Source: a virus (lineage: Duplodnaviria > Heunggongvirae > Uroviricota > Caudoviricetes). From it: a DNA stretch of 40,488 nucleotides. How positions within the stretch are numbered: the stretch's first letter is position 1; each line of letters opens with the position of its first letter. Below are positions 3,001 to 6,000 of this stretch, piece after piece. The DNA is taken from the IMG/VR virus record IMGVR_UViG_2700989521_000020. One strand, 5' to 3'. Made by a program: the position numbers.

Positions 3001-6000
3001 TTTCTTTCGTCCATGGATTAAGGCCGTACTGGTTGGCAACGATCAGCAATGCGATGAACTGCGCATCGCTGGCATCACCTTTAAATGCAGTCTGGCGAAG
3101 AGTGGTGATTAGTTCCTGTGGGTCGACAGAATCCATGCCGACACGTTCAGCCAGCTTCCCTGCCAGCGTTGCGAGAGCTGTACTCATCTGGTTTATACCT
3201 CTGAATCAATATAAATCTGGTGGCGGGCAATGGTTTCAACCATGTACCGGATGTGTTCTGCCATGCGTTCCTGAAAATCGACATCGTCATCAAATGCACG
3301 GGCAATGGCTTTTTTGCTGGCTCCATGACGTTGCAGATTATCGATGCACAGCGATTCAAACAGGTGCTGGGGCAGACCTTTTTCCAGGTCGTCCGCCAGT
3401 TCAGTCTCATTTTCTTCACGGGCAATTTGCCGGTAGTCTCGTGCCCATGACTGCTCTTCAATGCGATCGGGGATAAGCCAGGCATTCATGATTTATCACC
3501 TCCAAAATTTTCAAGCCTGTTGGCAATCATGATTGCGATATCAGGGATTGCTGGCGCTGTTGCGACGCATGCAGGGTTTGCGCACAAACCATAGACGGCT
3601 GCAAGCACGAGTTGCCTTTTCCAGTCGAAATCTGCTTGCTCTGAATCATCATTATTGTCAGAAGCATCACTATCTGGATCGATGTGAACAACCGAATCGT
3701 GTTCCTGAGTTGTATCAACAGCATTTTTCTGAATGTATTCATTCTTCATTTGTGCCTGGTCATCTCCAGCAGCGGTCTCATTTTCTCCAAAAGTTTCAGC
3801 GTAAGTTTCATCTCCCATTACTGGACCACAGTCAGGGCAATGCCCGCCACTGTTCTGACCGCATGCGGTGCAAACCTTTTCCACTCCCTGTTGCATTACT
3901 GGCCCAGGCTGTTGCTCTTCCGGTCCGTTTTGTTGCGTATCCGGGCTGTTTTGTTCCACTTTGGATTGATTCTGGTCCTCAGTGTCGCGAGTCTGGATCC
4001 CCTTCACCCATTTCGGGTCGGTTGGGGCGCTGATGCCTTCAACGAACTCCCCACGAGAGGCAGCCAGCAATTTGTCTGCATCGACAGGATTTTTGGGCAA
4101 AATGTTTTTCCTGGCTTCATAGAGTTCTGCTCTCAGTTCCTGGTATTTCGTTTCTACAGATGAGACATTTTCCAGTGATTGCGTGTCCGCATTATGTTTA
4201 ACTGGAATTTCTTCCACTGATTCAGGCGCTGCCTGTTCATTAGACATTGCGTCCGATGTTTGCTGCTTTTCTTCATCGTCATGTATCTCTTCTGCTGTTC
4301 CGCGCTGCGGCATCGGGGCTGATGAGCGACCGCAGGCAATTTCCACGATTTCCGGATCCGGGTTAGAGTGATCGGTTTCGGTCAACACTTTGTTGAGATA
4401 TTCAGTCACGCGCGCCGGGATAGCCTCAATGCCAATTGGTGCTTCTTTCACTGAAGCCACCACAATGGCGCGGGAATAATCCAGCCCACCGGGCATGGCG
4501 ATGAATTTGTCACGGAAAACAGAAAAGGGCGGTTTATTCTCTGCAACGATTTCTTCAACGCGTTTTGCATGTGCAGGGTGCAGGTTATAAATATCCACAT
4601 CCATTGAACGGGCCAGAACGCCAGTGGCAATGTCTCGCGCCAGTGATGCCTGATTGTGGGTAAAGCCTTCGCCACGATCGGTAAGATTTCCGCCGCCAGC
4701 GTTAGCACCGGAAGGCGTACGGGTGATGCCTGTAACACAATTTCCTTTCTGCCATTCTTTTGTCAGCAATCCCTGATCCACATAGTCTGTTTTCATCCAG
4801 GTGGAGATGAACTTGTCGAATTCGGCCGGGCCGATATGACGGGTTGTTGAGTGAGAGAATGCCTTTCCAACGGATTGTGCCAGTCTTCCCAGATGATAAT
4901 TCGTCAGCTTATCCAGTTCTGGATGTGAACGCACAGCAGTAAGCAGGCTCTGAAGGTAACTGTCTTCTGTGTCCATCTCCAGACGAATCACCTGATTACG
5001 TTGTTCTGGTGTGGCGTGATGCCGGTATTTTCCATCTTCATCCTTGCTGAAGAAGAAGAGGTGAAGGAAGCGATGAGTAAGGCTCAGAGTGGCGACGGGA
5101 ATTTCACACTCAGAACAGTTATCGTCGCTGTCCGGGGATTCGCTTTTCTCCACATCATCCGGAATAGTTCCGTCCAGGTTATCGTTGTCATCGCCAGCAG
5201 TTGTGGCATCTTCACCGTTGATGTTGTCATCGAAGGGGATAGCCATCATGGTGATGCCATCGTTACCGCCTTTTTCATAGCGGTTGCAGAATTCAGTATC
5301 AAACACGCCTTCCGGTGGAAGGTCATTCACGACGGGGAAATTTACGCGAACGGGTTTTTTGAAATCATCCTCGTCGTAGCCTGCATCGTCCATGGCTGCA
5401 ATGCAGCGGGAAACTGCGACAGAAAGTTTTCTGGTATCAGCCCAGAAAAAACCGCCTTTGATGCCAAGGCGTTTTCTGACTTTATCGTTTTTTGCTTCGC
5501 AGTGCAGTGCAAAAGTTTGTTTATCAGCGCTCATTGTATTTAAACCTCTGGCTGGGTTAGAATTAGCGGCCCTTTGTCTGATTTCTCCGAATACAGTGAC
5601 GCAGGGGGTAGTCCGGTAGCCTGCGCTGCCGGATTTTTTATTTCAGTGTAAGGTTGCCTGGTTTGTTGTTTTGTGAGTTGTTTTTTTCTTTTCATGCTGG
5701 CAGTCAGAGCAGTTGCATTCGCCATTTTCTCTGAGAAGTTGAAGTGCCAGGGTCAGTTCCTGAATTCTTTGTGGTTCAATATGACTGTCGACAATTTCAG
5801 ATGCAGCATGAATATATGGGCTGGTGGTTTCGCAATATAAACCGAAGGAAACAAAGCGACTGTCTTTATATTCGTTATTTCCAACTTCTGTAAGCACTGA
5901 AAAAGAAAATACAAAGTCGATTTTGTATTCTTTGCATATTTTACTGATGCGTTCTGCAATTTCTTTGAGTTCATTTATTGCATCAGGGCTGGTTTCGGAA

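Follow-up and report, generated by a model that had tools for sequence, protein, structure and literature searches.

What does the largest gene between int and N encode in a Shiga toxin (Stx) phage, and is it the exonuclease for which databases name it? The question is raised by the window analysed here, a stretch of 40,488 nucleotides (nt) from a virus of the Caudoviricetes (IMG/VR record IMGVR_UViG_2700989521_000020). The gene lies between N/kil and gam-bet-exo-xis-int. Reading the window sequence confirms an open reading frame (ORF) at 3486-5534 on the minus strand, with an ATG start and a product of 682 amino acids (aa). The protein has an isoelectric point (pI) of 4.6 and contains 120 aspartate and glutamate residues against 66 lysine and arginine residues, for a net charge of -54. 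An earlier note on this DNA was right about the ORF, its acidity and its rank as the biggest early-left gene. It had been unable to assign the protein to a family. The protein is almost certainly an intact, selectively maintained paralogue of RecE residues ~1-590 that lacks the nuclease domain.

The family assignment comes from several independent matches. The NCBIfam profile PRK09709 (exodeoxyribonuclease VIII) aligns residues 1-627 with positions 1-593 of its 877 (E 3e-223). Its score, 744, stays under the curated cut-off of 1269 because the nuclease part of the profile, positions 594-877, is unmatched. PHROG 607 also matches (E 2e-254) and, like PRK09709, covers the N-terminal RecE region only. 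The single Pfam family found is PF06630, Exonuc_VIII (E 6e-13), which represents the non-catalytic N-terminus of RecE. A BLASTP comparison with the RecE of Rac-SA53 (aa 43-570) gives 62% identity over 542 aa, and the match stops at residue 584.

An alignment of nine proteins locates the break. Homology to the RecE proteins of K-12 and Rac-SA53 extends past a four-cysteine (Cys4) motif to 'ETF' at residue 582. Beyond that point comes a variable acidic linker, and RecE then runs into its PD-(D/E)XK nuclease, whereas the 682-aa protein ends in a 45-residue tail and gam follows directly. No nuclease domain is detected in the protein by Pfam or NCBIfam, and there is no PD-(D/E)XK, DEDD or DUF3799 match; Rac-SA53 RecE, by contrast, does have the PD-(D/E)XK (DUF3799) match in Pfam. 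Likewise, its AlphaFold2 model contains only an N-domain, a helical core and a helical hairpin, with no nuclease domain. Because this domain is absent, the protein is, as judged from its sequence, not an exonuclease, and the database name 'exodeoxyribonuclease VIII' is an over-annotation.

In RecE, the PD-(D/E)XK nuclease part forms a tetramer and is sufficient alone for recombination. The large N-terminal region is dispensable for nuclease activity, yet it is important for linear-linear recombineering (direct cloning). Reviews call the function of this region unknown, while noting that it modulates the type of recombination, and RecE in its full-length form stimulates linear-linear recombination in RecET. 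Formally, then, the 682-aa protein does have a characterised phage protein as its homologue, but that homology is limited to the RecE region to which reviews assign no known function. RecE relatives of lambdoid phages without a nuclease domain have been termed 'RecE-2'; the passage that introduces them gives their roles as unknown and does not analyse them (Genome Res 2025, PMC12315714).

The window DNA is 100% identical to the Stx1-converting Shigella phage POCJ13 (KJ603229), and the protein is 100% identical to its coding sequence AHZ95173. The toxin genes stx1A and stx1B are located at about 20850-22076 (plus strand), downstream of Q, confirming that the phage is Stx1-converting. Public names for the 682-aa gene are inconsistent, being 'exodeoxyribonuclease VIII' in GenBank (KJ603229) and 'exonuclease VII' in the RefSeq record. 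Gam (3193-3489, minus strand) is labelled 'mobile element protein' in KJ603229. Judged by their titles and abstracts, papers mentioning POCJ13 apparently do not address the 682-aa gene.

The tail that replaces the nuclease is itself conserved. Residues L642, A645, A646, G649, C651, N653 and P654 are invariant in 21 tail-type proteins of Enterobacteriaceae, mostly 22-30% identical overall. When POCJ13 is compared with phiSTEC1589 and two E. coli genomes, the tail shows 10 synonymous and 6 non-synonymous differences, a ratio of non-synonymous to synonymous rates (dN/dS) of 0.15. Elsewhere this ratio is 0.2-0.3 for the whole gene, 0.13-0.35 for the folded parts, 0.13-0.18 for the core and ~0.55 for the fourth acidic linker, which also carries indels. 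The AlphaFold2 model places tail helices at 638-652 and 660-677. More than 100 full-length homologues (680-700 aa, 78-100% identical) with an intact reading frame are found in E. coli and Shigella, and 106 of 5426 complete E. coli genomes carry DNA that codes for the tail. Conservation and substitution pattern mark the tail as a domain under purifying selection, not junk.

The tail appears to be private to the family. A hidden Markov model of it, run over all fetched loci, matches the C-termini of family members only, and a tail-only alignment compared with a database of 5.8 billion proteins returns only short fragments of the family. Serratia quinivorans has a 79-aa ORF, barely more than the tail, at the place of the large gene (L022:5001-5240 and L023:5001-5240). 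It lies between a DUF1482 gene and xis/int on 9 contigs, and could be either what a deletion left behind or a tail that stands alone.

The tail is one of several endings that the same N-terminal region can carry. An exhaustive search of 1.84 billion representative proteins finds only 214 clusters, which makes the family a narrow one. C-terminal ends were classified locally for 84 distant representatives of at least 450 aa. A PD-(D/E)XK nuclease ends 23 of these, the tail 21 and a DEDD domain 14, and the remaining 26 have another end or none. On the alternative C-termini, Pfam recognises DUF3799 (PDDEXK), Rv2179c-like (DEDD) and RecT. Within the group with other or no ends are two RecT fusions, as well as an unassigned class whose proteins end ...YAKYLEGRLRRLEEVK (P0126, P0142, P0182, P0188, P0213, P0215, P0262). 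The members of this class have 280-450 extra C-terminal residues, and no Pfam family matches that part in the six members scanned.

The RecT fusions are P0124 (703 aa) and P0204 (615 aa), in which the RecE N-terminal region is joined directly to a RecT domain. In P0124 the two parts meet within the Cys4 motif (CNACGQTGGD / SALGHAYLLPFG), a position suggesting that a deletion fused recE to recT. DEDD ends are seen in large prophage 'exonuclease' proteins. Three proteins of 813-847 aa (L003:3573-6044, L004:5001-7442 and L009:4001-6544) share RecE-like N-terminal modules, with an Rv2179c-like DEDD 3'-5' exonuclease at the C-terminus of those from L003 and L004. The three genes all adjoin xis/int, and an annealase gene was not seen nearby. 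By these domain matches, one N-terminal scaffold carries either a 5'-3' PD-(D/E)XK nuclease, a DEDD 3'-5' exonuclease, RecT or the tail.

The scaffold is itself a mosaic. The N-domain of the 682-aa protein is 81% identical to that of a DEDD-type protein (strain M3) and 30% to K-12 RecE. For the core (aa 255-410), the relationship is reversed, RecE being 88-90% identical and the strain M3 protein 42%. Synonymous divergence ranges from 0 to 0.6 among segments. Because the identities differ from module to module, the modules of the scaffold have evidently recombined in the recent past.

A structural model of the 682-aa protein was built by AlphaFold2 with a 76-sequence alignment. Its confident parts are an alpha/beta N-domain (1-100), a helical core (141-410) and a two-helix C-terminal hairpin. 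Confidence is expressed as the predicted local distance difference test score (pLDDT), which reaches 94 in the helical core. No solved structural relative of this core was found in comparisons with the PDB and with viral structures. The predicted architecture resembles beads on a string: N-domain, core, linear motif, Cys4 knuckle (in the E. coli clade only) and hairpin are joined by four acidic disordered linkers. The parts, all on the minus strand, are as follows.

3486-5534, minus: whole gene for a nuclease-less RecE-family protein ('RecE-2' type) of 682 aa; an ORF with family matches over the N-terminal ~590 profile positions only.
5545-5548, minus: Shine-Dalgarno-like GAGG, 10 nt 5' of the ATG, read from the sequence.
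5235-5534, minus: N-terminal alpha/beta domain, aa 1-100.
5100-5234, minus: acidic disordered linker 1, aa 101-145, net charge -16; pLDDT below 50 at aa 102-140, and charge.
4305-5099, minus: all-helical core, aa 146-410, with a conserved Gly-rich loop TxSGAxAGGGNxTDR (aa 273-287).
4170-4304, minus: acidic disordered linker 2, aa 411-455, net charge -10; pLDDT below 50 at aa 415-455, and charge.
3984-4169, minus: helix 457-476 and the short linear motif PVDADKLLAASRGEFVEGISxPxDPKWVKGIQTRD (aa 481-517), identified by conservation.
3879-3983, minus: acidic linker 3, aa 518-552, net charge -6; pLDDT below 50 at aa 513-553, and charge.
3828-3872, minus: CxxC-x7-CxxC putative zinc knuckle (C555, C558, C566, C569), from sequence and cysteine conservation.
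3630-3788, minus: acidic disordered linker 4, aa 583-635, net charge -14, fast-evolving (dN/dS ~0.55 and indels); pLDDT below 50 at aa 570-635.
3489-3629, minus: C-terminal helical-hairpin domain, aa 636-682, with the motif QQLxxAAxxGxCANP...IPxMA, where RecE has its nuclease; from the model, conservation and dN/dS.
3486-3489, minus: ATGA stop/start overlap with gam (possible translational coupling), from the sequence.
1725-3489, minus: operon partners downstream, gam 3193-3489, bet 2402-3187 and exo 1725-2405, from Pfam Gam, RecT-family and YqaJ matches.

The cysteine motif had been described in the earlier note as a C-terminal zinc ribbon of the form 'CTACGQ-x8-CPDCG'. Both parts of this description need correction. 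Its sequence is CTACGQNSGGHCPDCG, a CxxC-x7-CxxC pattern at residues 555-569, with five residues between 'CTACGQ' and 'CPDCG'. It lies 113 residues from the C-terminus, and a separate 45-aa helical domain ends the protein. All four cysteines are invariant across the RecE, DEDD-type and tail-type relatives of the nine-protein alignment (A1). Conservation holds in the E. coli-like clade, where 107 of 112 close homologues have a CxxC-x5-9-CxxC pattern, but extends to only 7 of the 84 distant representatives. The Pfam DZR match to this region is not significant (E 0.15), and pLDDT is below 60 around aa 555-569. The motif is a putative zinc knuckle that appears to be restricted to the E. coli clade.

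The linear motif precedes the knuckle. Its block, N482 to D517, has 22 invariant positions in the nine proteins, which represent three architectures, and an RGEF[VI]-type motif recurs among distant relatives. Distant tail-type proteins in a further alignment, A3 (e.g. P0198, P0206, P0211, P0221, P0222, P0224), have QPKIENLGGGVFSVDxL as a second conserved short motif, together with one more helical domain (...LNDLLSGRTNIM...FSDEEIH...WSD...R). Neither is found in the E. coli clade, whose Cys4 knuckle sits at roughly that place.

The acidic tracts had given rise to the idea of a DNA mimic or anti-defence factor. Such tracts are real, in the form of four linkers (aa 101-145, 411-455, 518-552 and 583-635) that together account for -46 of the net -54. 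Disorder is predicted nearly throughout three of them, and from about residue 513 onward for linker 518-552. Lambda Gam, T7 Ocr and ArdA are acidic, early-encoded phage DNA mimics with their charge on a rigid folded surface. A rigid folded surface of acidic side chains is not what the 682-aa protein presents; its folded domains are near neutral, with a pI of 5.8-6.3. No PADLOC defence-system model matches it. With the acidity in disordered, poorly conserved linkers, and with no PADLOC, PDB or viral-structure match, the idea gains no support.

In the window, the TGA stop of the gene (3486-3488) overlaps the ATG of gam (3487-3489) as ATGA. The neighbour is Gam (Pfam PF06064, E 2e-61), and Bet (RecT-family match) and Exo (YqaJ match) come next. 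Translational coupling to gam had been claimed; the overlap is present, and coupling itself is possible. The same junction recurs in L006-L008 and in most E. coli genomes among the matches listed, and in most of the E. coli and Shigella matches listed, the next gene upstream of gam is the tail-type gene. One lineage (L019:4941-6038, E. coli CFSAN029787) keeps the tail-gam junction, but the place of bet/exo after gam is taken by an 'AAA family ATPase'. For a few E. coli copies, the annotation is that of a pseudogene, frameshifted or partial. In prophages of Buttiauxella, Citrobacter, Lelliottia and Cedecea, the tail-type gene (473-635 aa) is the last large gene before xis/int.

How does a RecE relative without a nuclease act? 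The 682-aa protein may be a non-catalytic scaffold or adaptor of the phage's DNA-end-processing/recombination module. This is the most economical reading because relatives fuse the same scaffold to DNA-end enzymes, and it is favoured tentatively, with somewhat less than even confidence. A target, for instance a DNA end or a protein of the host or phage, would be bound through the folded domains and the linear motif. What the C-terminal element supplies would differ by type: an enzyme in cis in the RecE and DEDD types, and a hairpin for docking or oligomerisation in the 682-aa protein. Made together with Gam, Bet and Exo from the pL operon, the protein would play the part for Red that the RecE N-terminus plays for RecET, that is, promote linear-linear recombination. 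Taken as a whole, this explanation is given an even chance of being right.

Several observations weigh against the adaptor proposal. Action of the RecE N-terminus in trans is not established in the RecE literature covered, and no structural or profile match hints at DNA or protein binding. Searches with phmmer find no Gam, Bet, Exo or RecT homologues near the tail-type genes of Buttiauxella, Citrobacter, Lelliottia and Cedecea, and no annealase neighbour was seen for the DEDD-type genes. Because tail-type and DEDD-type loci can lack annealase neighbours, the scaffold would seem to need no Red or RecET partner, and it may have a role outside recombination. Docking of the tail on lambda Exo, Bet or Gam was also considered, and is weakened by the tail-type genes of Citrobacter, Lelliottia, Buttiauxella and Cedecea that have no Red/RecT neighbours.

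In a bolder version of the adaptor proposal, the RecE N-terminal region would be an autonomous, non-enzymatic hub whose helical fold is new to description and to which DNA-end enzymes (5'-3' nuclease, 3'-5' nuclease, annealase) have been joined repeatedly. Its stand-alone form, with a new docking or oligomerisation 'GLCANP' hairpin, would act alone; it might, for example, bridge or cap DNA ends, or recruit a host factor. This is rather unlikely. If true, it would explain the preference of full-length RecE for linear-linear recombination, and would amount to a phage function that is neither nuclease, annealase nor Gam.

Other explanations read the same facts differently. The protein could be an anti-defence or host-takeover factor, including a DNA mimic; as an acidic protein, it would bind a host nuclease or defence system and inhibit it, which would complement Gam. 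It is strongly acidic, and it is encoded in the early operon, directly 5' of the anti-RecBCD gene gam in most E. coli entries among the matches listed. Tail-type relatives in prophages without a recombinase point to an autonomous function, and protein-protein interactions are suggested by the linear motif, which is conserved, and by a tail that resembles a docking element. However, the charge lies in disordered, fast-evolving, indel-bearing linkers, unlike the rigid surfaces of Ocr, ArdA and Gam; the folded domains have a pI of ~6 and no PADLOC, PDB or viral-structure similarity; and the scaffold is repeatedly fused to DNA-end enzymes. Such a role is improbable, and so, to the same degree, is a targeting module unrelated to recombination. 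In that case the scaffold would recognise a DNA structure or cell site and deliver a nuclease in its relatives, for example for degradation of host or superinfecting DNA, and the nuclease-less form would be a binder or competitor that, for instance, protects DNA ends. The presence of nucleases of opposite polarity (5'-3' and 3'-5') on one scaffold is hard to square with a single annealing-type role, and DEDD-type and many tail-type genes lack an annealase neighbour. Against this, RecE proper does work with RecT in recombination, its N-terminus modulates the type of recombination, and no DNA-binding fold is detected.

Decay would account for the homology break at the start of the nuclease and for the frameshifted or partial pseudogene label on some E. 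coli copies. The gene would then be a recE remnant, left after a gam-bet-exo cassette replaced the nuclease domain and recT, and its tail would be junk. More than 100 homologues nevertheless keep the frame intact, the folded parts have a dN/dS of 0.13-0.35 and the tail one of 0.15, and the tail motif is invariant in relatives from other genera that are 22-30% identical overall. Given this dN/dS and the deep conservation of the tail, a pseudogene or remnant is rejected as very improbable. Even less credence is due to a genuine exodeoxyribonuclease VIII, as named in GenBank and RefSeq. The database names and the Pfam 'Exonuc_VIII' match speak for the enzyme, but PF06630 covers the non-catalytic N-terminus only, PRK09709 scores 744 against 1269, and no PD-(D/E)XK or DEDD domain is found.

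Other ORFs near the gene were noted in passing. A 128-aa ORF lies just upstream at 5643-6029 (minus strand), in a low-GC stretch (36-41% GC, ~5500-6500). It has no Pfam or PADLOC match, and a 387-nt 'hypothetical protein' occupies its position in every E. coli tail-type locus inspected. Directly downstream of N, at 7056-7772 (minus strand), an ORF of 237/238 aa contains CTRCGQ...CKKCES, a second CxxC...CxxC pair. It too has no Pfam or PADLOC match; related phages keep it as a hypothetical gene of 714 nt. Just upstream of the tail-type gene, 6 of 8 loci (L010-L016, e.g. L011:5424-5624) have a small Cys-rich ORF of 64-74 aa that is YdaE-like. In the Citrobacter loci it reads MTLECCPYCKKW... and overlaps the start of the large gene. 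Rac carries ydaE at a comparable position.

The role of the RecE N-terminal region is a long-standing question that a natural stand-alone protein makes directly testable. A selectively maintained form beside the Red genes (in Stx phages and in ~2% of complete E. coli genomes) implies that this region is an independent functional unit, and it offers a clean reagent for testing the function of the RecE N-terminus in trans. The GLCANP tail and the RGEFV...DPKW motif are handles for finding partners. The case also exposes a systematic mis-annotation, with hundreds of 'exodeoxyribonuclease VIII' entries that have no nuclease.

Among known systems, lambda Gam, T7 Ocr and ArdA resemble the 682-aa protein in being acidic and early. 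They differ in bearing their charge on a rigid fold, where the 682-aa protein has it in disordered linkers, and they share no fold similarity with it. DEDD-type prophage proteins (e.g. WP_000034474, 823 aa, O157:H7) are closer. They share the N-domain, core, linear motif, Cys4 knuckle and operon position, but have a DEDD exonuclease end instead of the tail, and no gam/bet/exo follows.

RecE itself (866 aa in Rac of K-12, 1048 aa in Rac-SA53) has a homologous N-domain, helical core, RGEFV...DPKW motif and Cys4 knuckle. Identity to the 682-aa protein is 51-55% overall, rising to the 88-90% seen in core aa 255-410. Both genes occupy the same place in the early-left operon, 3' of kil/ydaE/racC-like genes. 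RecE ends in the PD-(D/E)XK nuclease (K-12 residues ~600-866), whereas the 682-aa protein ends in its 45-aa helical hairpin. Likewise, the partner of recE is the recT gene downstream, whereas the 682-aa gene is followed by gam-bet-exo.

The closest description is that of 'RecE-2' (PMC12315714). The 682-aa protein agrees with it in its relationship to the RecE of Rac and Gifsy, in the absence of a nuclease from its predicted structure and in its lambdoid early-left operon. It fits the class as that paper's passage describes it, and the class had thus been sighted before. To this description are now added a core without a solved relative, the RGEFV...DPKW linear motif, the GLCANP tail and a three- or four-way swap of C-terminal ends on a mosaic scaffold.

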